Shown piece after piece: positions 4,161-30,521 of a stretch of DNA of 35,504 nt; the stretch's first letter is position 1, and every line of letters begins with the position of its first letter. Location of the stretch: NCBI GenBank assembly GCA_024280675.1, contig JAJRPT010000031.1, forward strand, positions 1-35,504, read 5' to 3'. The notes beneath the pieces are model-generated. The model was given only the letters and a program-made list of their open reading frames with translations, was not told the DNA's origin and ran no database searches. The position numbers and the translations under genes were made by a program. The DNA comes from Bacteroidota bacterium (GTDB lineage: Bacteria > Bacteroidota > Ignavibacteria > Kapaibacteriales > UBA2268).

Positions 4161-4190
4161 TAGGGTAGATTCCAGTTACAAAATATAATT

Positions 4191-4961
4191 ATGGAAGAAT
4201 TAGCACAATTAATAGTAAAATACAGGCATAAACTGAATCGTAGCATTGAGACCGTATCAACCGATACAAAGATACGGAAATATATTATTGAATCTATTGA
4301 AAATGCTGAGTTTGAAAAACTACCTGCGGTCTATGGTCTGTCATTTCTGAAAAGCTATATCAAATATTTGGGCATCCCAGAACCAGAGTACACAGAATTA
4401 TTATCGGAGTACAAAGAATCACTCAATATTGCCAAAACAGATTATTCTCCTCAAAAATTCAGATCTTACGAGGGATTGCAAGCAAATGAAATAAATCTCT
4501 TTGGTATTAATTTCAAAGCTAAGTGGCAACTATATTTGCTATTTTCGGCAGTCGGAACGATTGTCTTGCTCATAATTTATTTCACATTATTTTTTCCTAG
4601 CGATAATAAAAAAATTGAGACCGTACCCAATTTGCCCACCAGCGACAAAAGTATTGTCGTGTCTGTCGATGACATTGAAATTGCAGAAACTATTCAAGAC
4701 AGCATAACTCTTGAGGCATTTGCCATTGACACGGTTTGGCTTAAGGTAGAAATTGACGGCAACAGAGTCGAAGAAGTTCTTCTTGTTCCGAACGAAAAGG
4801 TCAAATGGAAAGCAAAGGAATATTTCCTGGTTCACCAAGGTAATGTTGGAGGTCTCGAATTAAAGCGAAACGGAAAAGTCCTCGAACCATTTGGCTCACG
4901 TGGTTCTGTTGTGAAAAATGTTAGAATTATGCGCGATAAAATTATTAATCCAAATAGATAA
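4191..4961 (+). CDS. RodZ-like protein: N-terminal HTH, one TM helix, C-terminal DUF4115-like domain
   Basis: 256 aa. The HTH-like N-terminus reads LNRSIETVSTDTKIRKYIIESIENAEFEKLPAVYGLSFLKSYIKYLGI and the TM helix is WQLYLLFSAVGTIVLLIIYFTLFF. The C-terminus WLKVEIDGNRVEEVLL...GNVGGLELKRNG matches the RodZ C-terminal pattern. Confidence 0.7.
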   Translation: MEELAQLIVKYRHKLNRSIETVSTDTKIRKYIIESIENAEFEKLPAVYGLSFLKSYIKYLGIPEPEYTELLSEYKESLNIAKTDYSPQKFRSYEGLQANEINLFGINFKAKWQLYLLFSAVGTIVLLIIYFTLFFPSDNKKIETVPNLPTSDKSIVVSVDDIEIAETIQDSITLEAFAIDTVWLKVEIDGNRVEEVLLVPNEKVKWKAKEYFLVHQGNVGGLELKRNGKVLEPFGSRGSVVKNVRIMRDKIINPNR

Positions 4962-16036: not shown

Positions 16037-17098
16037 CTATGCAATCGCCACATCCTCGCAAAGATACACATCTTGTATCGCATTGAGCAGTTCCACTCCT
16101 TCTTTCATCGGTCGCTGGAATGCTTTCCGACCAGAAATGAGCCCATGGCCACCGGCTCTTTTGTTGATGACAGCCGTTTCTACCGCCCCAGCAAAATCAT
16201 TCTCACCAGATGCTCCACCAGAATTGATGAGCCCAATTCGTCCCATGTAACAATTTGCAACTTGGTAGCGAGCTAGATCAATCGGATGGTCAGACGAAAG
16301 CTCAGTGTAAATCCGCTTGTCGTATTTGCCAAAGCTGGAATTTTTGTTCATTGCTGGGTATCCGCCATTGTTTGTCGGAAGCTTTTGCTTGATTATATCG
16401 GCTTGGATTGTCACTCCGAGGTGATTTGCTTGCCCAGTTAAATCGGCCGAAGTGTGGTAATCTTTATCTTTTATGAAGTCATTATTCCGAAGATAACACC
16501 AAAGAACTGTAGCCATACCAAGCTCGTGAGCGTAAGCAAATGCTTCGGAGACTTCGATTATCTGGCGATTGGATTCTTCTGAGCCGAAGTAAATTGTGGC
16601 ACCAACGGCTACCGCTCCCATATTGAACGCTTGGTCGATTTGCCCAAACATAATTTGGTCAAAGCCATTTGGCGAGGTCAAGAGTTGATTATGATTGATT
16701 TTTACAATAAAAGGGATTTTGTGTGCATACTTTCTGGAAACAATGCCTAATACGCCAAAAGTTGAAGCAACGGCATTACACCCGCCCTCGATTGCAAGAC
16801 GTACAATATTCTCTGGGTCAAAATATATTGGGTTCTTTGCAAATGAAGCACCAGCCGAATGCTCAATACCTTGATCCACTGGCAAAATAGACATGTACCC
16901 AGTTCCCCCAAGACGACCATGAGAGTATAGTCTTTGTAAATTTGCAAGCGTGCGATTATTTCTGTCCGAGGAGGAAAATATCTTGTCTACAAAATCGCCA
17001 CTAGGCAGACACAACATATCTTTTGAGATTTTCGGAGAAGAAAAACCCAGCAAATCCTCAGATTTATTGCCTAAATATTCTTGAATTTTGCTTACCAT
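16037..17098 (-). CDS. fbaB: Class I fructose-bisphosphate aldolase (DhnA/FbaB type)
   Basis: 353 aa, near-colinear with E. coli FbaB as I recall it. Matching stretches include [88 protein letters not shown] and [19 protein letters not shown]. Confidence 0.92.
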
Positions 17099-17383
17099 TA
17101 TGAATTAATTCCTATTTTTGAAATATTATAACCAGCAATTTGCTAAATAATATTATATTTTGCTCATAAATACTTTTAACAATCCTAGATTTATTACTGT
17201 TAAAAAAACAAGGAAACAAGATCTCATATAATCTAATTCAATGACATTCGTCTGCTGGACAAATGTTTTGTGCTATTTCTGAAAATAAATTCATATATTT
17301 GAATGCCAGAGAATTACAATGCCCACTAAACACTATGGATTCCTAACTCACTACCTGCCAATAGCTTACAGCAATATTTATTA

Positions 17384-17399
17384 TGGCATAACTTTTGCA
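17384..17399 (+). promoter_or_regulatory. Candidate sigma-54 (-24/-12) promoter for the 17538..25386 cluster
   Basis: TGGCATaacttTTGCA matches the consensus TGGCAC-N5-TTGCW, with exact GG-N10-GC spacing. It is on the coding strand about 140 nt upstream of ATG 17538, inside a 439-bp AT-rich intergenic region. A single match could be chance. Confidence 0.35.
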
Positions 17400-17537
17400 A
17401 TAACAACATCGAAATAGTAGTTTTTCACAGTTCAAGACCATTTATACATGAAATTGCGTAATTGTACTTAAAAAAATATTGGAAGATCATTGCTAATTTT
17501 AGAATGTGAAGAAATACATTATTGAAAAAACTTAATT

Positions 17538-19937
17538 ATGAAAAATCAATTCAAAATATTAACTAATTCGGAGGGAGTCGTGAAAAGACTTTCAATTTAT
17601 TTGCTTTTGGCAGTTTTTCTTTCGCCAACAGTATTTTCGCAAACCTTTACAATGTCGGGAGCTTCGGCGACCTTTCACAATGAAGGTGTGATTAGATTTG
17701 TAGACAACGACGGTAAATTCCGTACCACATCCAGCAACGTATCAAATGTATCAAATTCTGGTACGATACAATTCGACGGCACGGACAATCAATTCACCGA
17801 CGAGTCCGACGCAGTTGGAACTACTGGTGCTTTGGGTTCAAGCTCTGCTCTTAGAGTACCTGGGACAGTTAGATATTCCGCAACGGTTGGTACGCAAAAT
17901 CTACAAAACAGGTATCTTACCAATTTGCAAACGTCGGCTGCATCTACCAAAGCATTCCCGAATAACATATTTGTAAGCTCTTCTTATTCAGTTGCTGGCG
18001 GAGACAGAGATTATGACGCAAATGCGGGTACTTTCACCTACGATGGCACGGGTGATCAAACAATAGTGGGCGAAAGTGGAGCTGGTGCAACCAATGGTTA
18101 CAACAATCTATTCTTTGCTGACACTGGGGATAAGACATTAGAAAATGGACAAACAGTAAGAGTTAATTCAACACTCAATATACTAGCCTCCACCTCAAGT
18201 GCTTCAATTATTGTAAAAGGTTCTATATTAGTAGATGATTATTTCAGCCAAGAACTTGACGCTGCAACTCTATATGTAGACGGAGTTGATGGAAATGCTT
18301 CTCTGTCATTTGGCTCAACTCAAGCAGATATTTACTCAGATATTGACTTGCGTAATGGAAACGGAACCGCTAATGTGTACCTTGGTACAGGTGGTGCTGT
18401 GATTCAAGATGGTACAAGTCCTTCTGTTTTAGTCAATTCTGGAACTTTCCACGTTGTTGATGGTAATTTAGAAATTGCATCATCTACTTCTAACTCTTTC
18501 CAACTTGCCAATAGTGCAGACGCACAAATTATTGTTGGTGCAAGTCGTTCATTCACTATAACTGGTGGTGGCTTTGCCAATGATGTAGCAGTTGGATCAA
18601 GATCTAATATGAATTTTGATGACGCATCTTTTGTAGTCTATGACACCGACGGGAATGTGATGCTGACTGACCGTTCCCACCCTTATGGCTCGCTCTACTT
18701 AAAAGGAACTGGTCACGGTACAGAAGCTGCTAGTGGTTCTTTCTATGTCTCTGAAGATTTCAACCTATCGGGCGAAGACTGGGATATTACTGGTGGTGCA
18801 ACTGCTGGTGCTGAATCCTCTCACACATTTATTATGACTGACAAAACTGCTAATGCTTCCTATGATGGCGGAGCTGAACTGACTGGTCTTATGATTCGTG
18901 AATTTGTTGGTGGAGCGGATCCAACAACTACTTACACACTCAATAACGAAGCTACTACTGTAGATTTTGAAGCAGGCAATGCTAATGTTGCAAGCCTTGG
19001 TCTTGACGTTCGTCCTGGTGGTGGTACTGCTGGATATGTTTCTGATTTCGACGCAAACAGAGATGTTGACCGTAGTGCCGGTTTCTACTTCGATGCTGCA
19101 TCTGGTACATTCGAGGCTAACGTGCTGGTGGGTTACAAATCTGCATCGGAAGCTGGTGCTCATAGTGCTATAGTTACTCAAACTTTGCGTTACCGTGAAG
19201 ATGATGGAACTTCTAACACAAAAGTATCTACTGGATACACTTACGCTCGAAATTCAACTTCATCTCCATTTGAAACTGTATATTATAGAGGAATTAGAAA
19301 AGATGGCGATGTTGGATCTAACAACTATACTCTGGCCGGCGTTGCAGCAGGGAATGTATTATTCCTTCGTGGTGGACCGACTTACTTCATATCTGTAACC
19401 AGTGGTCGTTGGGCAAATCCTTCAACTTGGGATGAGAACGAGCAACCTGGACCAGATGACATTGCTGTTGTAAAACACAACGTACACGTTGGATATGTGA
19501 AATCAACTGATAATTATGGTATCAATGATGACGGAACAGAAGAGTTTGACTGGATTACTAACCAATTCGGTGGCTCTTATGTAAACACTCAACTTGTGTC
19601 TAAAATCATAATCGACGAAGAGTACAATGACATTGGAAACCCAACAAATGTTGCTACTCTAATGGTTGGTCAAGATGTTTCAATGGGAATCCGCTCTGAT
19701 GCTTCGCTTGACGGATTAGTGCCTGAGCATGGTTCTATACAAATAAAAGATAATGCAAATATTGCTACGCTTGACTTGCCAAGCGATCTTACGACCGAAA
19801 ACACTGGTGCAGGCGAAGTTAATTCTGGCCTTATAATTTACGCCGGAGCAACTTTCCATGTTCAAAGAAACTTCGATCTTGAGGATAATGGTTTATTTGT
19901 TGGTCCTGACGCTACTGTACTCATTGATAAAAAATAG
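17538..19937 (+). CDS. Secreted Gly/Thr/Ser/Asn/Asp-rich protein (about 785-799 aa), beta-helix/adhesin-like, no recognisable T9SS CTD
   Basis: A likely true start is GTG 17580 (MKRLSIYLLLAVFLSPTVFSQ), preceded by GGAGG at 17570..17574 with a 5-nt spacer. The signal peptide ends ...FSQ|TF. Adhesin-like patterns include TFTYDGTGDQTIVGE...GYNNLFFADTGDKTLENGQTVRVNSTLNI and SGRWANPSTWDENEQPGPDDIAVV. Confidence 0.8.
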   Translation: MKNQFKILTNSEGVVKRLSIYLLLAVFLSPTVFSQTFTMSGASATFHNEGVIRFVDNDGKFRTTSSNVSNVSNSGTIQFDGTDNQFTDESDAVGTTGALGSSSALRVPGTVRYSATVGTQNLQNRYLTNLQTSAASTKAFPNNIFVSSSYSVAGGDRDYDANAGTFTYDGTGDQTIVGESGAGATNGYNNLFFADTGDKTLENGQTVRVNSTLNILASTSSASIIVKGSILVDDYFSQELDAATLYVDGVDGNASLSFGSTQADIYSDIDLRNGNGTANVYLGTGGAVIQDGTSPSVLVNSGTFHVVDGNLEIASSTSNSFQLANSADAQIIVGASRSFTITGGGFANDVAVGSRSNMNFDDASFVVYDTDGNVMLTDRSHPYGSLYLKGTGHGTEAASGSFYVSEDFNLSGEDWDITGGATAGAESSHTFIMTDKTANASYDGGAELTGLMIREFVGGADPTTTYTLNNEATTVDFEAGNANVASLGLDVRPGGGTAGYVSDFDANRDVDRSAGFYFDAASGTFEANVLVGYKSASEAGAHSAIVTQTLRYREDDGTSNTKVSTGYTYARNSTSSPFETVYYRGIRKDGDVGSNNYTLAGVAAGNVLFLRGGPTYFISVTSGRWANPSTWDENEQPGPDDIAVVKHNVHVGYVKSTDNYGINDDGTEEFDWITNQFGGSYVNTQLVSKIIIDEEYNDIGNPTNVATLMVGQDVSMGIRSDASLDGLVPEHGSIQIKDNANIATLDLPSDLTTENTGAGEVNSGLIIYAGATFHVQRNFDLEDNGLFVGPDATVLIDKK

Positions 19938-20009
19938 ATAATGGGTTAATTTAATCACTAACAAGACAATTATTTTAATTATACTAGAAAAGCGAAGATG
20001 AAAAGTATA

Positions 20010-20050
20010 GGGCAGCCTGATTAAACTCAATGAGCTGCCTTTGCTTTCTC
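20010..20050 (+). terminator. Weak hairpin plus T-rich tail between the first and second cluster genes (possible partial terminator or attenuator)
   Basis: GGCAGC (20011..20016) pairs with GCTGCC (20034..20039) across a 17-nt loop, followed by tttgctttctc. The stem is short and the loop large. Confidence 0.25.
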
Positions 20051-20056
20051 TAAAAG

Positions 20057-22471
20057 ATGAAAAAGATAATCTACATATTAAGCGTTCTCACATTCTTTGC
20101 CACCGCAGAGTCGCAGACATTTTCCAGCCATGGAGTGATTGTAAATGAAGGGACTTTTATTATTAAAGATTTGAACTTGGTAAGACTGGGCGGTACGGTA
20201 GAAAATTCTGGGACATTCACATTAAGCGACAGCCCAAATGGTATGTTCATTGAATCTAACTCTAATTTTATCAACACTGGCGAATTTAATTTATTTAACA
20301 CTTTGAACTGTAATGGCAATATTGACAATGAAAATGGATATTTGCAATTAAATTATAATGGTGGGACTGTTCTTGCCCAAGATGCCATTGGCGGATTTGT
20401 AGATTTTAATTACTCTGAGGATTTTCAAGTAATTCCTATGCTGAGCTTTGACAGTGTTGTGTTCAGAGGAAATGTGAAAAGATTTGATTATGACAACACA
20501 AGAAACCAAGATTCATTAGTTGCCCGCTCTTATTTCTCCTCCAGCAACAACACACAACTGACTTATCAATCTGATGATATAGAAATACACTCTCACCAAG
20601 TCACCAATCATGGCGGAACTGTTAAAAACTTCTCTGGTCCATGGTCTTGGTTTAGACAAAACTCCGACTCTCTTGGCGCGCAACTTGGTGGTTCTGGGTC
20701 TTTTACTCAATATGAAGTAGACAATCCAAATGGTGTAGAAATTGTAAGCAATGGAATATATATTGAGAATTTATTGCAACTCAGCCAGGGTGAGATGAAG
20801 AATACATCATCGCTCAACCTCACAATGGCAGACCAATCATCAATCCACCGCAAACCACAGTCATCACTATCGAGCCAGCCAAACTGGGAAGGCACGGTGG
20901 CTGTTCTTTACAATGGTTCTTCTAGCATCTCTACTAAAATTACAGCTGAGATTCCTACAGGCAAATCAATACTCACAGATCTTGAAGTGGAAAATACTGG
21001 AGGTATTGAGCTGACTCGTGACGTTTATGTAACCGACCGAATTTCGCTCAGAGATGGGAATATTTACACAGACGAAGACACAGACTCAGACGGCACAAGA
21101 GACAGCAGAAACACTTTATACATGATTAATTCTGACAATACAGCTTTAGAATTCGAGGACAAAAGCTCTGAGATTGTTGGTGCTTTTGCAAAAACTAATC
21201 TTGTGCTTGGTCAGGCAATGAAATTCAACAACGAATATACTAATTTAGCACTTGGTGAATTTGGCTCGGATATAGGAAATATTGACACATTGATTCTTCG
21301 TGTAGAGCCAAAATTCTCTTGGGATCAGGCAACTTATGGCGAGGTATCCAATGTGCAAAGAAAATTTGAAATTGCAGCAAGAAATTCAAACGGAACTGAT
21401 GCTCTATTTTTGAACTCGGCTACTTTCGGTTATGCGTGGAGGCATTTTGCTTCCGCCCCACCTTTTGAGAATGAAACTCCTGCCACTGGTGAATTTTCTT
21501 TCGACGAAGCAAGGCTTATTCACTGGGATGAGACTAATAACTCTTGGATTGACCAAGGCGAATCGGCTACAATTTTAACAGATGAGGGTGCAAACTGGGC
21601 TTACGGCATAGCCGATTTAAGAGGAGAACTGGGTCAATTTGCGGTCGGTGTCTCAGCCATTGATTATCTGCGTTTGATAGCTAGTGCCATACTCCAAGGG
21701 CCATACCGTGGGCTTGGAATTTATTCCGATGCAAACTACACCTCCCCTAGCCCTGTCCCACTAATGGGAACTGAGCTTAACCAGCAAGGGCTTTTGCCAT
21801 TGAATGCTCCGGACGAATACCCTTACAATCTTGATCCCGCAAGAGCATCGGCTACACTTAGTGTAATGCCACAAAACATTGTGGACTGGATTGTTGTTGA
21901 GTTTAGAAACAAAGCACTAGCAGAAGATATTGGTCCTCCACTTAAAAGTTTTTTCAAGACTTGCTTGCTCAGGTCCGACGGAATGTTAATTGATTTGGAC
22001 GGATCATCTGAGATTCTAATACTACAAGAAGATACCAAGACACCAGAGAATCCTGGAGGAATTGACGCAAGTGGAAACACTCCATATCATATTGTTTTAC
22101 GTCACAGAAACCACCTCTCAGTAGTCAGTGCTAATCCCGTATCTTTTTCTGGAGGCGATACCACAAGACTTACTCTTTCGCCTGGAGATTTGCTCGGCGA
22201 AGTGAAATTGCTTGGACTTGATAATCTGGGCAATAATATATTTGGACTATTGGCTGGGAACACAGACCACAATAGACTAACCATATTAAATGAGCAAATT
22301 ATTAATGAGTTTGGTTTCGAAGACGACAAGCAAGCCATCTGGAATAAAATTGGTTTGGCTGGCTACATGAGAGAAGATGCAAACCTTGACGGTTTGGTCT
22401 CGACAAAAGATTATAATATAAGCTGGAATAATAGACAGAAATTTACACTAGTCAAAGATTTGCTTCCATGA
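20057..22471 (+). CDS. Secreted 804-aa protein, N-terminally similar to the 17538 product; C-terminal 'LQGPY...DWIVVEFR...HRNHL' module and dockerin/EF-hand-like loop
   Basis: The signal peptide is MKKIIYILSVLTFFATAESQ|TF. The N-terminus QTFSSHGVIVNEGTFIIK...ENSGTFTL parallels QTFTMSGASATFHNEGVIRF...SNSGTIQF of the upstream gene. The C-terminus contains ...ILQGPYRG...PYNLDP...IVDWIVVEFRNK...LLRSDGMLIDLDG...YHIVLRHRNHLSVVS... and DANLDGLVSTKD. The stop overlaps the next start (ATGA). Confidence 0.8.
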   Translation: MKKIIYILSVLTFFATAESQTFSSHGVIVNEGTFIIKDLNLVRLGGTVENSGTFTLSDSPNGMFIESNSNFINTGEFNLFNTLNCNGNIDNENGYLQLNYNGGTVLAQDAIGGFVDFNYSEDFQVIPMLSFDSVVFRGNVKRFDYDNTRNQDSLVARSYFSSSNNTQLTYQSDDIEIHSHQVTNHGGTVKNFSGPWSWFRQNSDSLGAQLGGSGSFTQYEVDNPNGVEIVSNGIYIENLLQLSQGEMKNTSSLNLTMADQSSIHRKPQSSLSSQPNWEGTVAVLYNGSSSISTKITAEIPTGKSILTDLEVENTGGIELTRDVYVTDRISLRDGNIYTDEDTDSDGTRDSRNTLYMINSDNTALEFEDKSSEIVGAFAKTNLVLGQAMKFNNEYTNLALGEFGSDIGNIDTLILRVEPKFSWDQATYGEVSNVQRKFEIAARNSNGTDALFLNSATFGYAWRHFASAPPFENETPATGEFSFDEARLIHWDETNNSWIDQGESATILTDEGANWAYGIADLRGELGQFAVGVSAIDYLRLIASAILQGPYRGLGIYSDANYTSPSPVPLMGTELNQQGLLPLNAPDEYPYNLDPARASATLSVMPQNIVDWIVVEFRNKALAEDIGPPLKSFFKTCLLRSDGMLIDLDGSSEILILQEDTKTPENPGGIDASGNTPYHIVLRHRNHLSVVSANPVSFSGGDTTRLTLSPGDLLGEVKLLGLDNLGNNIFGLLAGNTDHNRLTILNEQIINEFGFEDDKQAIWNKIGLAGYMREDANLDGLVSTKDYNISWNNRQKFTLVKDLLP

Positions 22472-23919
22472 GGATTTGTCTCTACATATTAATTTTTGCC
22501 CTTGCTTCTCTTGCACATATTAATGCTCAGGAAAACCTTGCCACCTTTGTTATTAAAAATTCTCGTGCCATCGCTCCAGATTCTCTAGAATTTGAAATAT
22601 GGATGGAAAGAAATAGCGAAAAATGGGAAAGATTTGCTAATGCTTCTTTTAATCTAGAGTTTGTTTTCGATGACGAACAAACCGTGACCACTGGTCTTGC
22701 AAAAATTAATCCAGATGAGATGGGTATAGTATTTTTGCCTAGTACAGTGGCTGATTTCCAAGGCATAAGTGCTGGTGATCATGCCTCAACAGATGTAAGC
22801 TCACTTGCCGAAAATGAATACAAGGTCATTGACAGGATTTACATTGACGATATTCACGAAGGCAGAATAAGCATAACACTGGTCGGCTCAGATGAATTTC
22901 CTGATACAAAATATATATGGGCTAACGACGAGATGGACTCTAGTCTTTTTATTGCTAGATTTCTTATCTACTCTAAGAAAAGCTATAAGCAAGTGCCTAG
23001 AAGACTTGCATTTAAAAAACCTCTCAGCTATTATCAAAATGTGACATACAAGATAAATGACATCGTTGAGCAGTTCGGTCAAACAGATTATTATATTGCC
23101 GATGACAACATTTCTATGGTAGATCCAACGGGTCAGACCAGCATTGCATTTTTCCCGGATGTTGCTCCTCCTCCAGATTTTGTACTCAGATACATCCATC
23201 CACAATACCTTGGCAATGGGAAAATGAGAATTTCTTGGGCAACTACTGCTGAGATTTTCAATACAGGGTTTATGATTGAAAGAGTTCGCATGCCATATTT
23301 TTCAACTGCTGAAGATCTTGCAAGTATTAATTGGGTATCTCAGCTTGATAAAAATTTAGATTATGACAATGAACTTTCTGCTCCAAATCCAGACATATCT
23401 ATTGTAGGTTTTGGCGACACAGAACTACCACAAAATGCAAATCACTCCAACGAGATATTAAATGATAAATTACTAGCAGGTGCAGACCATCCCGATGGCT
23501 ATGATTACAACTTTATTGACGAGCATGACTTTGTGCGAGAGGATTATTATTGCTTCCAAGTCTCTTCTATCGACTGGAATGGTACCGTTGTGCCTCTTGG
23601 GCAAACTTGTGAGAAAATACCAAATGCAATCATCACACTAGCAGAAGCTAGACCAAATCCATTTGCCAGAGAAACCACGGTGCAGTTTTCAGTCGATGAT
23701 GATGTGAACCTTTGGGCTTATGTGGTGGACGAAAAAGGAAGTATAATAAAAAGATTATACGAAAATGACCATGTGCAAAAAGGCACATATCTACTCAATA
23801 TCTCAATGCCAGAATTCTCCTCGCAAGGACTCTACAGCCTTGTTTTCACGGCTGAACCTATCAATGATAAAAATTTCGAAATCTCACGTGCATTGGTTAA
23901 ACTGCACATGATTAAATAA
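22468..23919 (+). CDS. Secreted 483-aa protein with type-A T9SS C-terminal sorting domain
   Basis: The signal peptide is MRICLYILIFALASLAHINAQ. An 'MRISWATTAEIFNTGFMIERV...YYCFQVSSIDWNGT' module is followed by the CTD ARPNPFARETTVQFSVDDDVNLWAYVVDEKGSIIKRLYEN...GLYSLVF...KLHMIK. The start overlaps the upstream stop by 4 nt. Confidence 0.8.
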   Translation: MRICLYILIFALASLAHINAQENLATFVIKNSRAIAPDSLEFEIWMERNSEKWERFANASFNLEFVFDDEQTVTTGLAKINPDEMGIVFLPSTVADFQGISAGDHASTDVSSLAENEYKVIDRIYIDDIHEGRISITLVGSDEFPDTKYIWANDEMDSSLFIARFLIYSKKSYKQVPRRLAFKKPLSYYQNVTYKINDIVEQFGQTDYYIADDNISMVDPTGQTSIAFFPDVAPPPDFVLRYIHPQYLGNGKMRISWATTAEIFNTGFMIERVRMPYFSTAEDLASINWVSQLDKNLDYDNELSAPNPDISIVGFGDTELPQNANHSNEILNDKLLAGADHPDGYDYNFIDEHDFVREDYYCFQVSSIDWNGTVVPLGQTCEKIPNAIITLAEARPNPFARETTVQFSVDDDVNLWAYVVDEKGSIIKRLYENDHVQKGTYLLNISMPEFSSQGLYSLVFTAEPINDKNFEISRALVKLHMIK

Positions 23920-23991
23920 TTTTTACTAGTTAGCTACTTTTCTAAAATAATTATTTAATTTGGCTTGTAATTTGCTACATTTCTTAGGATA

Positions 23992-25386
23992 ATGAAAAAA
24001 CCAGCCTACATATTAATTATTCTGTCATTAATACTTTTTAGCAAGAGTACAGCCCAAGACGAGTATGGGACTATGCTCGAGACTGAAATTCTTGAAAATT
24101 ATGACACTCTTCTTACCACCAGAACTTATGGTAATTGGTGGTTTAGCTTTCTGGGTGGAGGCTTAGCATTTAATACATACAATGGCAATTTAAATAATCT
24201 TGAGAATCCCACAAAAGTATTTCACGAAGATGCAAATAAAGTCGTCAGCTTTGAAACTACCAACAACAGATTAGCTTTTGGCTGGCCTAATTTCATGCTA
24301 CTAAATGTCGATTATATTCCAGCGGCAACAGACTGGGGAGGGCAGCTTAGATTATTATGGGATTTTCATAGCTTCACCGCTCAAAGGGTTAAAGACAGGG
24401 AATTCGATGATGATATAAACTTCATTATCGAGGGAAATATTGAATATATTGGAATTAATCCCGCAGTCTCCTACCGCTTGCCTTATTTTGCGGGGCTAAA
24501 GGCATACACTGGTCCAAATATTTTCATACCCATTGATGCCACTGGATCTTTTATTGATAATCCAGATAATATTTCAAACAAAAGACCAGACTTCAAACTC
24601 GATGATGTACCAATTATGTATGGTCTACACCTAGGTATAGAAAAAGAATGGCTCAATATGGATTTTGCTAAAACTGTGAGGGTGAAGTCTACTTTCTTCT
24701 TGCAAGCAGATTATTTTTTTACTACGGCTATCAATGATTTTAACTCTGACTTGCAAACATTTAGAGTAAGACTAGGAGGAACCTTTAGGATCGGTCCCGA
24801 TATTTTGGAATACGATACACTAAAGTTTGATCCTTTTGCCAATAATAGAAATCTTGCAAAATTTGAAACAGACCAAAGCGTTATCTTCGCTGGATTTTTA
24901 GTAAGGGAAGAAATCGGTGCAAACTCTATCTCGTTTGTTGATTTGCCAAAAGTCTCACAACAAGTCAAAGAAGAGCCACAGTTTGCACAAGAAATGGAAA
25001 AAGAAAAAGAAAAAGAAAAAGAGATAAAACTCGACCTTAAAAGAGGAACTAAAAAAACATACTCCTTCTCAAGATCTACCGACACTAGATTATCCAAAAC
25101 TATGAGAAGCGAAATAGATGGGATAATAAAGTGGATGAAACTCAATCCAGAATCAGAGGTTAGAGTCGTGGGCCATTCCGACAACACCGGCACCACTGCC
25201 GAACAAACCCAAAGAGCCAAAAAAAGATCTGAAGCCGTTCTCAGATATATGCAACTCAAAGGGATTCGAAAAGAAAGGGTACTTGTCACACAACAAGGAG
25301 CCCGTACCCCAATCGCCGACCCAAAGACTGAGGCCGGCAGGAGAAAAAACCGTAGAGTAGAAATTGAAATTGTCAAGATAAGATAA
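23992..25386 (+). CDS. OmpA-family outer-membrane protein: N-terminal beta-barrel-like domain, EK-rich linker, C-terminal OmpA-C peptidoglycan-binding domain
   Basis: The signal peptide is MKKPAYILIILSLILFSKSTAQ. Alternating-hydrophobic strands end in FRVRLGGTFRIG. The linker is EMEKEKEKEKE. The OmpA-C motif reads VRVVGHSDNTGTTAEQTQRAKKRSEAVLRYM...RRKNRRVEIEIV. Confidence 0.85.
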   Translation: MKKPAYILIILSLILFSKSTAQDEYGTMLETEILENYDTLLTTRTYGNWWFSFLGGGLAFNTYNGNLNNLENPTKVFHEDANKVVSFETTNNRLAFGWPNFMLLNVDYIPAATDWGGQLRLLWDFHSFTAQRVKDREFDDDINFIIEGNIEYIGINPAVSYRLPYFAGLKAYTGPNIFIPIDATGSFIDNPDNISNKRPDFKLDDVPIMYGLHLGIEKEWLNMDFAKTVRVKSTFFLQADYFFTTAINDFNSDLQTFRVRLGGTFRIGPDILEYDTLKFDPFANNRNLAKFETDQSVIFAGFLVREEIGANSISFVDLPKVSQQVKEEPQFAQEMEKEKEKEKEIKLDLKRGTKKTYSFSRSTDTRLSKTMRSEIDGIIKWMKLNPESEVRVVGHSDNTGTTAEQTQRAKKRSEAVLRYMQLKGIRKERVLVTQQGARTPIADPKTEAGRRKNRRVEIEIVKIR

Positions 25387-25520: not shown

Positions 25521-25910
25521 ATGTCAGATCAAAAAGCACCAATCGCTGTGATTGAAGATAATACTCCGATTAGAAAACTATTTGCTACCATTCTTGCCAA
25601 ATCTGGATTCACCGTAATAGAATTTGCAGATGGCAATTCCGCACTTAAATCTTTTAAAGAAAATCCCGTCTCTACAATCATCATGGATATACTTCTTCCA
25701 GATATTAATGGCACCGAACTCATTAAAGATGTCAGGAAAATTGATGCGTGTTCAGATATACCAATAATTGCTGTAACCGGTTTTGCACAATCCTCCGACA
25801 GAGAAAAATTCATAGAACTAGGCTTCGATGCCTATATTTCTAAGCCTATTAATACTGGCGCTTTTGTCGAGGAAATAAAAACTATTCGCTCCAACAAATT
25901 TGCTAATTAA
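25521..25910 (+). CDS. Stand-alone response-regulator receiver domain (CheY-like)
   Basis: 129 aa. The sequence IAVIEDN...STIIMDILLPDINGTELI...IPIIAVTGF...DAYISKPI retains the acidic pocket, the phospho-acceptor Asp, and the conserved Thr and Lys. There is no output domain. Confidence 0.9.
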   Translation: MSDQKAPIAVIEDNTPIRKLFATILAKSGFTVIEFADGNSALKSFKENPVSTIIMDILLPDINGTELIKDVRKIDACSDIPIIAVTGFAQSSDREKFIELGFDAYISKPINTGAFVEEIKTIRSNKFAN

Positions 25911-25923
25911 TCTAACTGAGTAA

Positions 25924-28128
25924 ATGAAAATGGCAAGACCAAATACCTCCTCCAATAAACATATCTCAAGAAATACAAAGAAAAAATCCGACTCTGCGGC
26001 AGCATTTAAATTATCTAAGACCTATCCAGCTTGGATAATTCTCATAGTTACTCTGCTCATAAGTGTCTTTCTCTACGATTTTATGGACAATAAAGTCCGC
26101 TCCGATAACGAGATGGCTTTTGAAAAAGCAACCAGCTCGCTTGTGAGCAGAGTCGAAGATAATTTTGACAACAAAATTCAAATAATGAATTCGGTAAATA
26201 ATATTTTTAAGAATTCCTACGTTGTAAGAGATGTATTTGAGATAAACACAAAGAATGCTGTGGCTACTTATTCCTCTGTTGTCTCTTTTGGGAAAGCTAA
26301 CAAAGTCACACCAGAAACTATTGGTGATTTCATCTACAATACACGGTCTCAAGGCTACTATGACATGAGGGTCACTCCAAAAGGAGAAAGAGACCTCTAC
26401 TATTTAACCGAATATATTGTCCCTTTCGAGGCTAATGAAAATAGAATTGGCTATGACGTTGCGACTGAAGAAGTTATCAAAAATGCTATTGATTCGGCCA
26501 GTTTGCACAATAGAATTCAAGTCACCACCACATTTGAATCCATGTCAAAAACACTTTCATTCTACATCATCGCACCACTCTACGAGTTTGGAATGCCAAG
26601 CCAGACAAGAAGTGACAGGGAAAAATATTTCAACTCTGCTGTTCTTATGGAGATGAATACTAGATTGTTCTACGACGAAGCCTTGGGCGAAGGGATTGCT
26701 TCTGATTCTACAATTATCTTCAAAATAGTAGATTTGGTAGAGGGTTCCGAATCGGGCGATTTCTATACTTCTGCAAATTATGAATCGATGGTAAATAAGG
26801 ATGGCAAGGGTGCTTTAATTAAAAATAATACAGATTTGAGCTTTGGAGACCACACAATAAGAATTAAGTTTGAAACCGCCATGGGTTTTGGGGGCGAGTT
26901 CTCAGAATACCTACCTCTTATTGCTCTGGGTTCTGGTGTGTTGGTCTCTGTTGTACTGTTTCTGTTCATTATTTCAGTCATCACCTCTCGCCAACGTGCA
27001 CTTGATTTGGCCGACCGAATGACAAAGTCTCAACGTAGAATAGTTGATTCCTCCCAAGACATCATCTCTGTTTTGGAGATGGATGGGACTTGGAAAACTA
27101 TGAACCCCGCTTCGGAGAAAATATTTGGCATGGATTCAGAGGAACTAATTGGCCGCAATATCAAAGAACTATTCTATTCCGAAGACGACTCCGAAGAATT
27201 CTTCAGAGTTGTAAGCACCGAGCATGAAGATTATTCAGAAAGAATTGACATACAGATGATTGCTAGTGAAAATGAAGTAAAGTGGATGAACTGGAGTCTT
27301 TCAATCTCTTTGCAAGATTCACTCGTCTATGCCATCGGAAGAGATGTCACACTGGAAAAAGAAACAGAAGAATTGCAAATTATGCAAAGAAAACAAGTTG
27401 GGCTTGCTGGGCGTTTCTCCAAAGAGGCTAATGAATCCAAATCTTTTTTCATGGTTCAACTCTCTCACCAACTTCGCAACTCACTGACTGGTATTCTGGG
27501 TTACCTCCAACTCATACGAGAGGGGTATTACCAGAGCGATGAAGAACTAAAAGAATATGTTGCACTTGCCGAGACTAGTTCCGAAGAAATATTTACATTC
27601 GTATCCGATATTGTCGAGATCACAAGCGCTACCGAAGCCAAAAACTCCACTCCAAAGCTTTCAAATGTAAACTTCTATGACGTTTACAAAGATGTTGCCT
27701 ACAAAATATACCTTATCATTGATCTTCCCGATGTTAAAACTACAATCAATGACGAAGCAAAGTTTGTTCATTTCCTTGGTGAAAGAACAGTTATGACAGA
27801 GTTACTTCTCATGTGTTTTGGCACTTTATGCACAGGGCTAGAAAATCAAACTGTGACCGTTCAAGCAGAAGAAAATACCTACGAAGGTGCTACCGAAATT
27901 CAAATCCTAGGACCGGGTAACGACGTGGTCGAAAGAATGATTAACGCTTACAAATTCAAAAAATCTGGCATAATTGACGCATTAGAAGATGACGAAGGCG
28001 ACGTGCTGTTAAATCTTGCAATCATCGAATCCGATATAAGAAGGCTCAATGGTAGTGTAACCATTGAATCATTCGGGGGCGAAGAAGGTAATGTGATTAT
28101 GATGACACTTCCTCTACAAAAAAGATAA
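25924..28128 (+). CDS. Sensor histidine-kinase-like protein: TM, CHASE-like periplasmic domain, TM, PAS, HisKA, and a degenerate HATPase-like domain
   Basis: 734 aa. TM1 is YPAWIILIVTLLISVFLYDFM. The CHASE-like core is TPKGERDLYYLTEYIVPFEANENRIGYDVATEEVIKNAIDSA. TM2 is LPLIALGSGVLVSVVLFLFIISVI. The PAS region includes IISVLEMDGTWKTMNPASEKIFGMDSEELIGR. The H-box is FFMVQLSHQLRNSLTGILGY, with the His codon at 27466. The C-terminal ~140 aa lack clear N, G1 and G2 boxes. Confidence 0.85.
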   Translation: MKMARPNTSSNKHISRNTKKKSDSAAAFKLSKTYPAWIILIVTLLISVFLYDFMDNKVRSDNEMAFEKATSSLVSRVEDNFDNKIQIMNSVNNIFKNSYVVRDVFEINTKNAVATYSSVVSFGKANKVTPETIGDFIYNTRSQGYYDMRVTPKGERDLYYLTEYIVPFEANENRIGYDVATEEVIKNAIDSASLHNRIQVTTTFESMSKTLSFYIIAPLYEFGMPSQTRSDREKYFNSAVLMEMNTRLFYDEALGEGIASDSTIIFKIVDLVEGSESGDFYTSANYESMVNKDGKGALIKNNTDLSFGDHTIRIKFETAMGFGGEFSEYLPLIALGSGVLVSVVLFLFIISVITSRQRALDLADRMTKSQRRIVDSSQDIISVLEMDGTWKTMNPASEKIFGMDSEELIGRNIKELFYSEDDSEEFFRVVSTEHEDYSERIDIQMIASENEVKWMNWSLSISLQDSLVYAIGRDVTLEKETEELQIMQRKQVGLAGRFSKEANESKSFFMVQLSHQLRNSLTGILGYLQLIREGYYQSDEELKEYVALAETSSEEIFTFVSDIVEITSATEAKNSTPKLSNVNFYDVYKDVAYKIYLIIDLPDVKTTINDEAKFVHFLGERTVMTELLLMCFGTLCTGLENQTVTVQAEENTYEGATEIQILGPGNDVVERMINAYKFKKSGIIDALEDDEGDVLLNLAIIESDIRRLNGSVTIESFGGEEGNVIMMTLPLQKR

Positions 28129-28772
28129 TGGCAGAGTTTATTGACATTGACCGATGGTTTGGTGACAAAGAGGGCGAATGCTATAATTTTGTGACAAAAG
28201 CACTCGAAGATGGTGAACTTATTGCATTTCCTACAGATACGGTTTATGGTCTGGGATGTGATATAGAAAATGAAAGTGCGGTAGGCAAAATATTTGAGCT
28301 AAAAAAACGCTCAAAGCAAAAAGCTCTCGGAGCTTATCTTTGTGGAGTGAATTGTGACGGTCGCCTAGAGAAAATGTCGAGCAGTATTCCTGAGATATTT
28401 TTTAAACTTTCCAAAGAGTTTCTACCAGGTCCTCTTACAATGATAATTCCCCGCCACGGTGCTTTTGCGGCTCTGGCAACATCAAACTCAAAGGGAATTG
28501 CCATAAGAATACCCAAGCACAGACCTCTGCTCGCTTTTCTATCCCATTACAAGGGAACACTCGCTGGTACATCTCTAAATCTTGCGGGCGAAAAACCAAT
28601 CAATGATCCAATAGAAATTCAAGAAAAGTTTGGAAGTCAAATAAAATATATTTTAACCTCGAATGAAAAGATCTCTCAAAACTCCTCTACAGTTATTGAT
28701 CTGACTCATGGCAAAATAAAATTGCTCCGAAAGGGTGATTTAGATATTTCCACACTCAAAAAATTTGCCTGA
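28128..28772 (+). CDS. tsaC: L-threonylcarbamoyladenylate synthase, YrdC/TsaC type (t6A biosynthesis)
   Basis: 214 aa with the motifs IAFPTDTVYGLGCD, ELKKRSKQKAL, LPGPLTMIIPR, IAIRIPKH and LAGTSLNLAGEKP. There is no Sua5 C-terminal domain. The ATG shares 1 nt with the kinase TAA (ataATGg). Confidence 0.85.
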   Translation: MAEFIDIDRWFGDKEGECYNFVTKALEDGELIAFPTDTVYGLGCDIENESAVGKIFELKKRSKQKALGAYLCGVNCDGRLEKMSSSIPEIFFKLSKEFLPGPLTMIIPRHGAFAALATSNSKGIAIRIPKHRPLLAFLSHYKGTLAGTSLNLAGEKPINDPIEIQEKFGSQIKYILTSNEKISQNSSTVIDLTHGKIKLLRKGDLDISTLKKFA

Positions 28773-28778
28773 TAGAAT

Positions 28779-30521
28779 TTATATTTTCTTTTCTAACCCA
28801 GCATTTATCTCAGCAATCCGCTTTAGGTTCTCCTCAACATTTGCTTGCCCTGAAGATATTTTTTGCTCTAGTGTCTTTACTTTTTCTAAATCTATTGACT
28901 CCTGAGAACCCTCTTTTATTTTCACTAAAAAAGATTCGTCCTCTTTGATTAATTTCTCAATATTTTCATTCTTTTGTTCTAATTTTTTAATCTTCTCCTC
29001 TAGTTTCTTACGCTTTTCCACCTCACGTCTTCTGAGGAAATCTTTTCTCTTTGAGTCAAACTTTTTAAAACCTTTTCTAATCCTTGCCAGCAATTCATTG
29101 CGATGGGAGCGTGTCAGCTTTATAATCTTGACCTCATCTTGGACATCAATTAAGCCCTCACGAATATCTCTGAAATTATTAGAGTATTCAACATTGGCTA
29201 TCGCCTCACTTATTTTCAGCTCAAGTTTCACAAAATTGCTTTTAGATATTTCCTTGAACTCCTCTGTCATCTCTTCGGTATTCTGGTTGAGCTTCGAAAA
29301 TATTGCACGAATCTCACCAAAGAGTTCATCACTTTGCCTTCTTGTCAAAGCTAATTGCTTTAGCTTCTTCTGGGTTTCAATTAGATGATTTCGAGAGGAA
29401 CTACTATTTTTTGGATCACTTGCAAATAAAATTGCAGTATCGACCATTGGCTTTGCCAACAAATAATTTTTCTCTGCGACTTCCCCAAAAGCCTTACGTT
29501 CGTTGTCTTGTTTTGCATTTATTTCATCGAATGCCAATCGTATTGTGCCATAGAGTTCGTCACGTTCCTTGCGTGAGAGCTTCACATCTCTTAGCTCTTT
29601 TTGTAGCGATATTAAAATCTTTCGTGCATTGTTTAAATCATCAGACGTTTTTTCCTTGTTGCAAGCAAATTCTACACGTGGCTTAAACCGCAAATAATTC
29701 TCAGCACATTCCATCTCAAAGGCCTCTCGCTCTGCACCTTCAAGCATGTTAATCTTATCGAACAAATTTTGAATTGACTTGAAAAACACATCCCTGTCAC
29801 TTGGGCGAAAACTTATAGACTTCATCTCCTTTTGCAAAGAGATTAATATGAGTCTAGTTTCTTTTAAATTATTAGATAACTTTCCCTCTGCCTCTTCAAT
29901 CTTAATATCAAATGTTGGTTTATATTTATTAAAGTTTTCATCAAAGATTTTATTTCGTTCTTCTCTTTCTTTTGCCTGTCTACTAGACACCAACTCAAAG
30001 ACTTCTTGAATCCTCTGGTCTATTTCATTTCTTTGATCCAGTGGGATTAAAAACAATGCTGACAAAGATTCCTTCAAGCCAACCAAAGTTTTGCGAATAG
30101 ACCTTGCGTCTCTATTCTCCTCAAAACCTAATTCTAATGCTTCTATTGTCTCATTTAGAAAATTAAACTCTTTTTCTTGTTTGGCAAGTGCGTCTTTATT
30201 GACAGGAGCTTCAAAATGCTCAATTTCCTCAGCAACTGCTTCTGGCTGCACTGCTTCTTTCTCAATTTCCTCTTCTGCACTCGAATCCTCAAGCACCTCT
30301 ACCTTTTGCTCTGGTTCACTTTCCGGCTCCAGCTCTGGAGGTGATTGTACTTGATTAGCTTCTTCTTCTTGTTGCTCGCCAGCAGTAGATTCTACAGTGT
30401 CCTCACTTTGGGATTCCTCTTTTTGGATGGGCAGATTATGTTCTGTTTCAACTACATTCGTTTCTACCACTGCCTCAGATTCCTTTTTCACTTCAATATT
30501 GCTGTTTTCTTCTTGTGTCAT
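28779..30521 (-). CDS. Acidic N-terminus plus a five-fold ~65-aa helical repeat protein, divergent DUF349-like
   Basis: 580 aa. Five units share the pattern L(I)xLQKE(l)xx(v)xLxRxxRDELfxxIRxaFdxinxxxxxxxxxF. One example is ARKILISLQKELRDVKLSRKERDELYGTIRLAFDEINAKQDNERKAF. This mirrors the DUF349 core (LQkEWk.iG.v.r...d.LW.rFr.a.D.Ff) but lacks its Trp residues. The E/K-rich C-terminal region looks coiled-coil. Confidence 0.65.
   Translation of the reverse strand: MTQEENSNIEVKKESEAVVETNVVETEHNLPIQKEESQSEDTVESTAGEQQEEEANQVQSPPELEPESEPEQKVEVLEDSSAEEEIEKEAVQPEAVAEEIEHFEAPVNKDALAKQEKEFNFLNETIEALELGFEENRDARSIRKTLVGLKESLSALFLIPLDQRNEIDQRIQEVFELVSSRQAKEREERNKIFDENFNKYKPTFDIKIEEAEGKLSNNLKETRLILISLQKEMKSISFRPSDRDVFFKSIQNLFDKINMLEGAEREAFEMECAENYLRFKPRVEFACNKEKTSDDLNNARKILISLQKELRDVKLSRKERDELYGTIRLAFDEINAKQDNERKAFGEVAEKNYLLAKPMVDTAILFASDPKNSSSSRNHLIETQKKLKQLALTRRQSDELFGEIRAIFSKLNQNTEEMTEEFKEISKSNFVKLELKISEAIANVEYSNNFRDIREGLIDVQDEVKIIKLTRSHRNELLARIRKGFKKFDSKRKDFLRRREVEKRKKLEEKIKKLEQKNENIEKLIKEDESFLVKIKEGSQESIDLEKVKTLEQKISSGQANVEENLKRIAEINAGLEKKI

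Follow-up and report, generated by a model that had tools for sequence, protein, structure and literature searches.

In gliding Bacteroidota such as Flavobacterium johnsoniae, the genes of the sprC-sprD-sprB-sprF operon are co-oriented and encode very large secreted proteins of repeat or adhesin-like character along with accessory secreted proteins, a barrel of the outer membrane and a wall-binding element that is OmpA-like, and in the pap and fim pilus operons a stem-loop follows the gene of the major subunit. Here we describe a cluster of four co-oriented genes, called P1 to P4 in the following, from an uncultured bacterium of the class Kapaibacteria. We read it, with a probability of somewhat less than one half (about 0.45), as encoding one cell-envelope or cell-surface assembly, namely a wall-tethered surface beta-solenoid assembly linked to the secretion system of type IX (T9SS). 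The cluster lies on contig JAJRPT010000031.1 of assembly GCA_024280675.1, whose 35,504 nucleotides were analysed as a whole and are referred to as the window. To our knowledge, Kapaibacteria are known only from metagenome-assembled genomes (MAGs), and their envelope biology is essentially undescribed; a literature search found neither this cluster nor Kapaibacteria surface systems described. Two further systems serve for comparison, namely SprF, the dedicated outer-membrane partner of the T9SS cargo SprB (PMC12635249), and cohesin-dockerin assemblies, including the non-cellulosomal dockerins of Bacteroidetes (PMC6487960).

Results

In the list of open reading frames (ORFs) of the window, P1 (17538-19937, 799 aa), P2 (20057-22471, 804 aa), P3 (22468-23919, 483 aa) and P4 (23992-25386, 464 aa) all lie on the forward strand, as had been stated in the original prediction, which was made from the DNA letters alone. 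The TGA of P2 and the ATG of P3, read directly from the sequence, overlap as ATGA at 22468-22471, again in agreement with that prediction, and P3 is, judging from this overlap, translationally coupled to P2. All four proteins carry Sec-type signal peptides with a glutamine at position +1. This residue never varies in P1 (Q35), is conserved to at least 90% over 23 orthologues in P3 (Q21) and is the consensus in P2 and P4. A glutamine at +1 after signal-peptide cleavage corresponds to the Q-rule of Bacteroidetes (PMC5837995). In this sense, the likeness between the mature N-termini of P1 and P2, which had been noticed at the outset, holds for the shared Q start, but it is partly explained by the fact that the +1 glutamine is a lineage-wide property, and what is left of it is a repeated N-x-G rung motif.

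The order P1-P2-P3-(WD40)-P4-(CheY)-CHASE sensor, where parentheses mark genes that are found in some loci only, is kept in approximately 20 species-level Kapaibacteria genomes at 25-75% identity, and the contigs of close homologues keep the order P1-P2-P3-P4-CheY-CHASE sensor at 75%, 41%, 33% and 28% identity. A scan of species-representative genomes with a sensor profile gave 50 loci, nearly all in MAGs labelled Kapaibacteria, Kapabacteria, 'Chlorobiota' or 'Ignavibacteria'. When family hidden Markov models (HMMs) were mapped onto ORFs, P1, P2, P3, P4 and the sensor were present together in 19 genome loci, a count that takes in some loci in which P1 is cut by the contig end. Beyond these, the full cluster is found in the window itself and in three metagenome contigs (L001-L003), and the short metagenome contig L006 holds P1 and the start of P2. 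Orthologue identities range over 24-75% for P1, 51-84% for the CheY-type regulator and 38-78% for the kinase. What is more, P3 follows P2 in every locus where P2 is present and the sequence continues past its stop, with a gap of at most 7 nt in 12 of 23 loci, as counted from ORF coordinates. The scatter of homologues that had been named beforehand as speaking against a common unit is thus not what is seen; the homologues are strongly syntenic across the approximately 20 genomes. We note separately that many third-party MAG records titled 'uncultured Hyphomicrobiales', 'Chromatiales' or 'Ectothiorhodospiraceae' (L008, L012, L014, L016-L018, L023, L025, L031, L034, L042, L050, L051 and L056) carry Kapaibacteria-type loci, and that their taxonomic labels look wrong.

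Three layouts can be told apart. In layout (a), a WD40 protein with a bona fide C-terminal domain (CTD) of the T9SS type stands between P3 and P4, and CheY is present as well; layout (b), which is that of the window, has CheY and no WD40 protein; layout (c) has neither. Partial loci also occur, such as L011, with P4, CheY and the sensor only, and L045, without P1. Upstream of the cluster, the layout (a) contigs L004 (1-9767) and L005 (1-7072) encode a secreted protein of more than 3900 aa immediately before P1, and one of these two giant adhesin-like proteins bears a GEVED domain; in L006, an upstream protein fragment ends in the terminal rung motif of P1. Layout (c) loci carry two further conserved genes upstream (L029 3-2332, L033 27-2870, L043 59-2342), one for a protein of ~560-770 aa ending in ...YLKFTRIQ and the other for a secreted protein of ~160 aa with the terminal N-x-G...IEVG motif of P1, and neither protein has a match in Pfam. 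In L045, the gene of the ~160-aa protein (3928-4395) stands at the usual position of P1. The unit thus extends beyond four genes and is also more variable, since some lineages add a WD40-CTD protein, a giant adhesin-like protein or two upstream genes. That said, by its gene order the cluster is clearly a conserved unit, and it is vertically inherited within Kapaibacteria, an uncultured class of the FCB group (Bacteroidota in the wide sense).

P1 consists of a signal peptide (aa 1-34), an all-beta region (aa ~30-490) and a remainder that contains the invariant motif GRW.NP.TWDE at aa 623-633, in which G623-R624-W625...W631 are invariant over an alignment of 16 orthologues. The idea that this motif marks the start of a G8 domain found no support, as 12 P1 orthologues gave no G8 match at E<=10. 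P2 has a signal peptide of 19 residues, with Q20 at +1, followed by N-x-G rung motifs at the N-terminus. The two proteins had been taken for paralogues. Pairwise BLASTP between them is not significant (best E 0.047), whereas hhalign of their orthologue profiles gives a probability of 95% (E 3.4e-8) over ~190 columns (P1 303-519 against P2 239-442); in a joint alignment few positions are invariant, for example Q35, G109, G450, N470 and R512 in P1 numbering. In other words, what stands of the paralogy is one shared domain of ~190 residues, seen by profile-profile comparison and missed by BLASTP, and on this comparison P1 and P2 are distant, partial paralogues assembled from shared modules. P1, P2 and P3 have zero matches in Pfam and NCBIfam at E<=1, and PDB sequence and profile searches with the three gave nothing convincing, the sole profile match being marginal (P1, E 0.0027, 19 bits). 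Two expectations were borne out in this way, namely that P1 and P2 lack a T9SS CTD (none matched in Pfam, NCBIfam or orthologue scans) and that P1-P3 show no recognisable catalytic motif (no enzyme family in Pfam, NCBIfam or PDB searches). Similarly, a placement of the proteins in unrelated well-characterised families had been named as telling against a common assembly, and the profile and PDB searches put P1-P3 in no characterised enzyme family. Most likely, the proteins of the cluster come largely from previously undescribed families.

Word-indexed homologue searches returned just 4 relatives of P1 and 2 of P2, and a search with a mixed P1 and P2 alignment added none. This apparent rarity arose because the word filter missed relatives, as an exhaustive search showed. 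Namely, when P2 was compared by HMMER with 1.84 billion representatives, 6161 proteins matched at E<=1e-3 and 100 did so at E<=1e-30, and with ~90 full-length orthologue clusters the P2 family is not ultra-rare. Six of the representatives, from other lineages (P0088, P0094, P0095, P0096, P0100 and P0104; 1451-1581 aa), are P1-P2 fusion proteins, in which the final rungs of P1 (e.g. ...LQNASLVSNGGRIEVSQ) are followed at once by the first rungs of P2 (SLVSTGLIRNNGTV...) and no signal peptide intervenes; these six fusions look genuine. Two hybrids (P0090 and P0097) join the N-terminal part of P1 to the C-terminal module of P2, and P2 aa 205-339 recurs 5-7 times in giant proteins elsewhere. Since the fusions are seamless, one can argue that the C-terminal end of P1 and the N-terminal end of P2 are neighbours in the working structure. 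To this extent, the proposal that the two large proteins act together physically gains support from the fusions in six other lineages.

Structure prediction is consistent with, and gives weak support to, a beta-solenoid fold for P1. The AF2 model of P1, built from five sequences, has a mean pLDDT of 54.7, with aa 30-490 consisting entirely of short strands at pLDDT 60-87 and with the C-terminal third unresolved. When this model was compared with the PDB by Foldseek, no hit was significant (E>=0.12, TM<=0.18), and right-handed beta-helix proteins, such as tailspikes, autotransporter passengers, VacA p55 and polygalacturonase, make up nearly all of the leading hits. The Beta_helix profile of Pfam matched neither P1 nor its orthologues. 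The P2 model (3 sequences, pLDDT 36.8) is poor and was left out of the fold search. A prophage tailspike origin of P1 and P2 was considered too, and tblastn found no match of either protein in 50,697 phage records.

The C-terminal module of P2 (aa ~565-804, nt 21749-22468, forward strand) is ~230 aa long and bears the motifs LEGPY, YPYNLDP, VDWIVVEFR, IRHRNHL and SWNNR. Most of the 6161 HMMER matches share only these last ~230 residues of P2. The module ends at most 15 aa from the protein C-terminus in 44 of 54 occurrences (median 2.5) and keeps varied company, including Beta_helix, FG-GAP, Peptidase_S8 (subtilase), GDSL lipase, PETase-like, metallophosphatase and Cohesin domains, with Por_Secre_tail alongside it in 1 of 43 proteins. 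No model matched the module in our Pfam and NCBIfam scans, and the names of cluster members that carry it are all 'hypothetical' or blank. Its last ~65 residues (P2 aa ~735-795) are dockerin-like, with a double calcium loop, and are always preceded by a conserved, unmatched domain of ~170 aa. In the P2 of the window the first calcium loop is degenerate, only the second is intact, and Dockerin_1 gives no match at E<=10; the same profile scores 30.2 bits in L014 (cut-off 22.9), 18.5 bits in L038 and 15.3 bits in L005, and EF-hand_1 reaches 26.3 bits in the P2 of L038, above its cut-off.

P3 was described in the original prediction as bearing a canonical type-A CTD, and here the prediction has to be corrected. 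Behind a signal peptide with a hydrophobic N-terminus and an A-Q cleavage-like site (HINA|QEN), P3 begins with an N-terminal domain that has no match (aa ~22-230), continues with an Ig/FN3-like middle and closes with a tail (aa ~396-483, nt 23653-23916, forward strand) that profile scores mark as T9SS type-A CTD-like. For the window protein, this tail is the top match yet scores 14.1 bits, below the cut-offs of 23 (TIGR04183) and 27 (PF18962). TIGR04183 is top or near-top in 4 of 4 P3 tails (14.1-21.6 bits), and PF18962 matches 13 of 23 P3 orthologues at E<=10 (best 2.8e-4). In addition, the tail of the WD40 neighbour passes the CTD threshold at 41-43 bits, and the HMM of this WD40 protein matches the P3 of the window by way of that tail (E 1e-5). 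We read the P3 tail as a divergent T9SS type-A CTD, probably homologous though not canonical. As to T9SS cargo in the lineage, bona fide Por_Secre_tail proteins occur in the sister Kapaibacteria loci. An attempt to see a cohesin in the N-terminal domain of P3 was rejected for now, with no Pfam match and an hhalign probability of 0.2% against a CipA-type cohesin sequence.

P4 comprises a signal peptide, an outer-membrane beta-barrel (aa ~22-300), a charged linker and an OmpA_C domain (aa 364-454, nt 25081-25353, forward strand). The latter matches PF00691 with 62.1 bits (cut-off 27.2) and is found in 21 of 21 P4 orthologues, while NCBIfam matches cover the OmpA_C part only and lie far below every equivalog cut-off. 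For the barrel, a set that combines P1, P2 and P4 orthologues, 21 of them P4 proteins, gave 9 sequences that match OMP_b-brl_2 (best E 2.2e-9) and 3 that match OMP_b-brl, and these matches are attributed to P4 by family name; the sole direct assignment is a weak precomputed match on the P4 of L005. The P4 of the window has no barrel match of its own at E<=1, but it aligns over its full length with the P4 orthologues, and by these matches together with the alignment its N-terminal half is an outer-membrane barrel. The fusion of a barrel to an OmpA-C domain, as first proposed, thus stands on the PF00691 score and, for the barrel, on the matches in the orthologue set together with the alignment. 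Other OmpA_C proteins lie near the cluster in sister contigs, for example a PD40/OmpA protein of 708 aa.

The two-component pair said to lie immediately downstream is there as well, and consists of a single-domain CheY-type response regulator (25521-25910; PF00072, 88.7 bits) and a membrane sensor (25924-28128) with CHASE, PAS and HisKA domains by Pfam, both on the forward strand. The regulator is a bare receiver domain and is kept in layouts (a) and (b) and absent from layout (c). The sensor is the best-conserved gene of the neighbourhood (38-78% identity); its HisKA domain scores 40.5 bits, H515 is invariant and the H-box SHQLRNSLTG is intact. No HATPase_c was found at E<=1 in the sensor of the window and none in the precomputed Pfam matches of the L002-L005 orthologues, and in an alignment of five orthologues the C-terminal ~170 residues lack the N, G1 and G2 boxes, and neither a DxGxG nor a GxGxGL motif is seen there. 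The sensor may be a pseudo-kinase or phosphatase-only protein. Given the degenerate ATPase domain and a regulator that lacks an output domain, classical transcription control driven by an autokinase is unlikely, and we infer that signalling is non-canonical, by phosphatase activity, phosphotransfer or protein-protein control. The pair is co-conserved with the cluster, yet it is also found without P1-P4 in other genomes. In particular, the closest sensor/CheY pairs in reference genomes (48-51% identity; L007, L010 and L018) adjoin glmS, proS and htrA-like genes, and more distant sensors adjoin other large OmpA_C proteins (L030, L036, L039, L044, L047-L053 and L056). Judging from this distribution, the signalling pair is older and is conserved as a unit of its own.

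Between P1 and P2, 3' of the P1 stop, folding energy picks out a stem-loop with a U-rich tract at 19996-20051 (forward strand), which is terminator- or attenuator-like (minimum free energy -19.3 kcal/mol, z -3.3). All 13 loci of layouts (a) and (b) have a perfect-stem hairpin of 10-15 bp at this position, for instance at 8039-8154 in L002, 12356-12443 in L003 and 12269-12410 in L004; the position is kept, the sequences are unrelated, and several hairpins have U-runs on their 3' side. Over 19 P1 sites the mean best energy is -23.3 kcal/mol, as against -12.6 to -12.9 after P2, P3 and P4 and a random-window background of -14.8 kcal/mol (standard deviation 4.6). In the layout (c) loci L029, L032 and L043 the hairpin is weak or absent. 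The element has the look of a leaky terminator or of a stabiliser of the mRNA, both functions being predicted. Because a strong, terminator-like hairpin that is conserved in position follows P1, a simple single transcript is doubtful, and the arrangement suggests that P1 may be expressed separately from, or in excess over, P2-P4.

As regards the surroundings, the AT-rich intergenic leader or divergent promoter region between a DeoC-family aldolase gene (minus strand) and P1 was found as predicted (17099-17537, 439 bp, listed on the forward strand), with a GC content of 0.286 over 17001-17500 compared to ~0.40 elsewhere. No Rfam family matched anywhere in the window, including this leader, which speaks against a structured RNA within it, and a scan of the sequence for consensus promoters and terminators was uninformative. 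Some 6 kb upstream of the cluster, a protein of 1627 aa (6455-11338, minus strand), whose sole Pfam match is a FlgD_ig or CTD-like domain at the extreme C-terminus, is probably another T9SS-type surface protein. On the other side, the start of a gene at 28128-28772 (forward strand) overlaps the sensor stop by one base; its counterparts in L002 and L003 belong to the Sua5/YciO/YrdC family by precomputed Pfam matches, the other layouts lack it, and its place beside the sensor is probably a lineage-local adjacency. Convergent on that gene, there is one for a strongly E/K-rich protein of 580 aa with internally repeated, helical-looking segments (28779-30521, minus strand), which has a 587-aa counterpart at the same position in L002.

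Discussion

How could the products of these genes work together? In the assembly that we favour, P1 and P2 would stack by their ends and so form an elongated beta-solenoid unit, with P1 possibly produced separately or in excess by way of the terminator-like hairpin. P3, together with the WD40 protein where there is one, would leave the cell by the T9SS and be attached to its surface, where P3 could be the docking partner for the C-terminal module of P2, and P4 would staple the assembly site to the peptidoglycan wall. The CHASE sensor, with CheY, might then link the assembly to an extracellular or periplasmic signal through protein contacts or phosphotransfer. The role of the cluster is likely adhesion or the formation of a surface structure rather than catalysis. 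Compared with the multi-subunit surface structure that was originally proposed, the idea is partly supported, by synteny, the P1-P2 fusions and the OmpA-type P4, whereas two of its elements, the canonical CTD and the simple single transcript, are not, and the specific roles, such as a presentation of P1 and P2 by P3 and P4, are putative.

Several observations weigh against this assembly and should be stated clearly. The structure models are poor for both P1 and P2, with the pLDDT values given above, and the beta-solenoid fold is weakly supported at Foldseek E values of 0.12 and above. The dockerin-like segment in the P2 of the window is undetectable by the family profile, and no cohesin-like partner was found for it, as PF00963 stayed unmatched in 23 P3 and 48 P1, P2 and P4 orthologues at E<=10. 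The P3 tail of the window falls below the family thresholds, and because the CTD is divergent, T9SS use by P3 has to be inferred; what is more, none of the T9SS core components (SprA, PorV, PorU, GldK/L/M/N) is encoded in the 35.5-kb contig, which is the sole part of the genome covered. As neither P1 nor P2 carries a recognised signal that would take it across the outer membrane, their surface exposure is conjectural. The signalling link is not obligatory, because the closest kinase/regulator pairs sit beside housekeeping genes without P1-P4. Finally, gene fusion, which implies a 1:1 stoichiometry, and a terminator after P1, which implies an excess of P1, point in different directions, and they occur in different lineages.

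It is for the lack of a known route of P1 and P2 across the outer membrane that a periplasmic reading stays alive, unlikely as we judge it on the whole. Here P1 and P2 would remain periplasmic, like beta-helix proteins of the NosD or AlgG type, and would form with P4 and the CHASE sensor an envelope-spanning complex that monitors or remodels the envelope, with P3 as an unrelated or accessory secreted partner. Both large proteins indeed carry Sec signal peptides only, with no CTD or other signal for crossing the outer membrane, and the link between the CHASE sensor and OmpA_C proteins is older than P1-P3, as seen from L011, where only P4, the regulator and the kinase are present, and from the distant kinases that lie beside OmpA_C proteins. 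However, the C-terminal module of P2 sits elsewhere on extracellular enzymes (subtilases, GDSL lipases, PETase-like hydrolases), P3 and its WD40 neighbour have T9SS-type tails, and the adjacent giant adhesin-like proteins point outward. A quite improbable alternative makes P1 and P2 divergent beta-helix polysaccharide lyases or hydrolases that are held at the cell by the dockerin-like module, and the cluster a nutrient-acquisition locus. The best, non-significant Foldseek hits do include tailspike depolymerases and polygalacturonases, the P2 module is found elsewhere together with Beta_helix, Pel9A-like and further hydrolase domains, and dockerins are typical of enzyme subunits. Against this, P1, P2 and their orthologues match no catalytic family in Pfam, NCBIfam or the PDB even at E<=10, their conservation is concentrated in modules that do not look catalytic, and neither transporter nor SusC/D nor sugar-metabolism genes are conserved beside the cluster. 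It is because nothing catalytic can be detected and no uptake or catabolic genes are conserved nearby that we consider the enzymatic explanation weak.

Type-A T9SS cargo does not normally need a dedicated PorP-like partner, and the tail of P3 is type-A-like, which speaks against yet another explanation, namely that the cluster is a cargo-specific T9SS accessory module. In such a module, P4 would be a PorP/SprF-type barrel fused to a PorE-type anchor and would serve P3 and the WD40 protein, with P1 and P2 as passengers or co-factors. P4 does stand directly after CTD-bearing genes, there is a weak NCBIfam match to PorE through OmpA_C, and in Bacteroidota T9SS cargo genes often adjoin dedicated outer-membrane partners, as in the case of SprF and SprB (PMC12635249). 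However, none of 21 P4 orthologues matches PorP or SprF at E<=10, the PorE score (NF052230) is 29.3 bits against a cut-off of 600 and concerns OmpA_C only, and P4 lacks C-terminal twin cysteines, so that we give this explanation little weight. As to the possibility that the genes are chance neighbours or an annotation artefact, four genes without functional unity, one can point to the flanking regions, which vary between lineages, and to the kinase/regulator pair, which is also found alone. That said, the same order in approximately 20 species-level genomes at 25-45% identity, the overlapping or abutting junctions and the gene fusions leave it almost no credence, and we consider it effectively refuted already by the synteny survey.

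The assembly described above could also be part of something larger, although we would regard what follows as a long shot. P1, P2, the small P1-like proteins and the giant proteins, with the terminal N-x-G...IEVG motif that they share, might join head to tail by rung stacking into a new surface fibre, docked through the P2 module on a T9SS-anchored P3, tethered to the wall by P4 and controlled post-translationally by the CHASE pseudo-kinase and CheY. The fibre would be an adhesion or motility organelle of Kapaibacteria not known so far, and the module would be a general surface-docking signal of thousands of secreted proteins. For the preferred, more modest reading as a wall-tethered assembly, there are implications as well. 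The cluster is a conserved, lineage-specific Kapaibacteria locus in which almost all families are without a Pfam or NCBIfam model or a convincing PDB relative, and, provided that the reading holds, a new T9SS-linked surface assembly is defined by it. There would also be a first functional context for the C-terminal module that more than 6000 protein clusters contain, among them proteases, lipases, PETase-like and beta-helix proteins, a context that bears on how such enzymes are kept at the cell surface, and the conserved CHASE sensor without an ATPase domain would be a candidate for a non-canonical signalling partner of an envelope structure. Should the reading be wrong, the locus would still be a well-delimited target for structure prediction and metaproteomics.

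How does the cluster compare with the systems mentioned at the beginning? With the spr operon it shares the co-oriented arrangement of large secreted, accessory, barrel and wall-binding genes, the sorting tails on some members and, in some lineages, the giant adhesin-like genes upstream. On the other hand, Pfam and NCBIfam detect no sequence relation to SprB, SprC, SprD, SprF or PorP, P1 and P2 lack a CTD, the type-A-like tail of P3 is divergent, and a CHASE sensor and CheY go with the cluster, which is not so for spr operons; moreover, our literature search found no gliding described for Kapaibacteria. The adhesins of type V secretion (autotransporter and two-partner) resemble P1 and P2 in having all-beta, solenoid-like passengers with N-x-G rungs, there is a barrel gene in the cluster, and the non-significant Foldseek hits of P1 include Ag43, Hbp, EspP, IgA1 protease, VacA p55 and the two-partner secretion (TPS) domain of EtpA. 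Nevertheless, no autotransporter barrel, Omp85/POTRA or TPS domain matched in Pfam for P1, P2, P4 or their orthologues, and the barrel of P4 is fused to a periplasmic wall-binding domain instead of a passenger.

Among cohesin-dockerin systems (PMC6487960), the likeness lies in the duplicated calcium loop at the C-terminus of a secreted protein and, as with the dockerins of enzymes, in a placement at the extreme C-terminus of varied passengers. The cluster differs from them in having neither a cohesin nor carbohydrate-active enzymes, in the single intact loop of the P2 of the window, which has no Pfam match, and in the domain of ~170 aa that the dockerin-like part of P2 follows. Tethers of the OmpA, Pal and PorE type have the same layout of barrel, linker and OmpA_C as P4, whose barrel half (~280 aa) is longer than the 8-strand barrel of OmpA and which is an operon-specific paralogue. 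With the pap and fim operons the cluster shares a strong hairpin after the first structural gene, followed by tightly packed minor or anchoring genes, but it has no pilin, chaperone or usher homology, and the P1-P2 fusions imply a 1:1 use in those lineages that have them. Taken together, the cluster does not clearly qualify as a member of either the T9SS-linked adhesin operons or the dockerin systems, and yet it resembles the former, with its OmpA-type anchor, and the latter in a dockerin-like means of docking.

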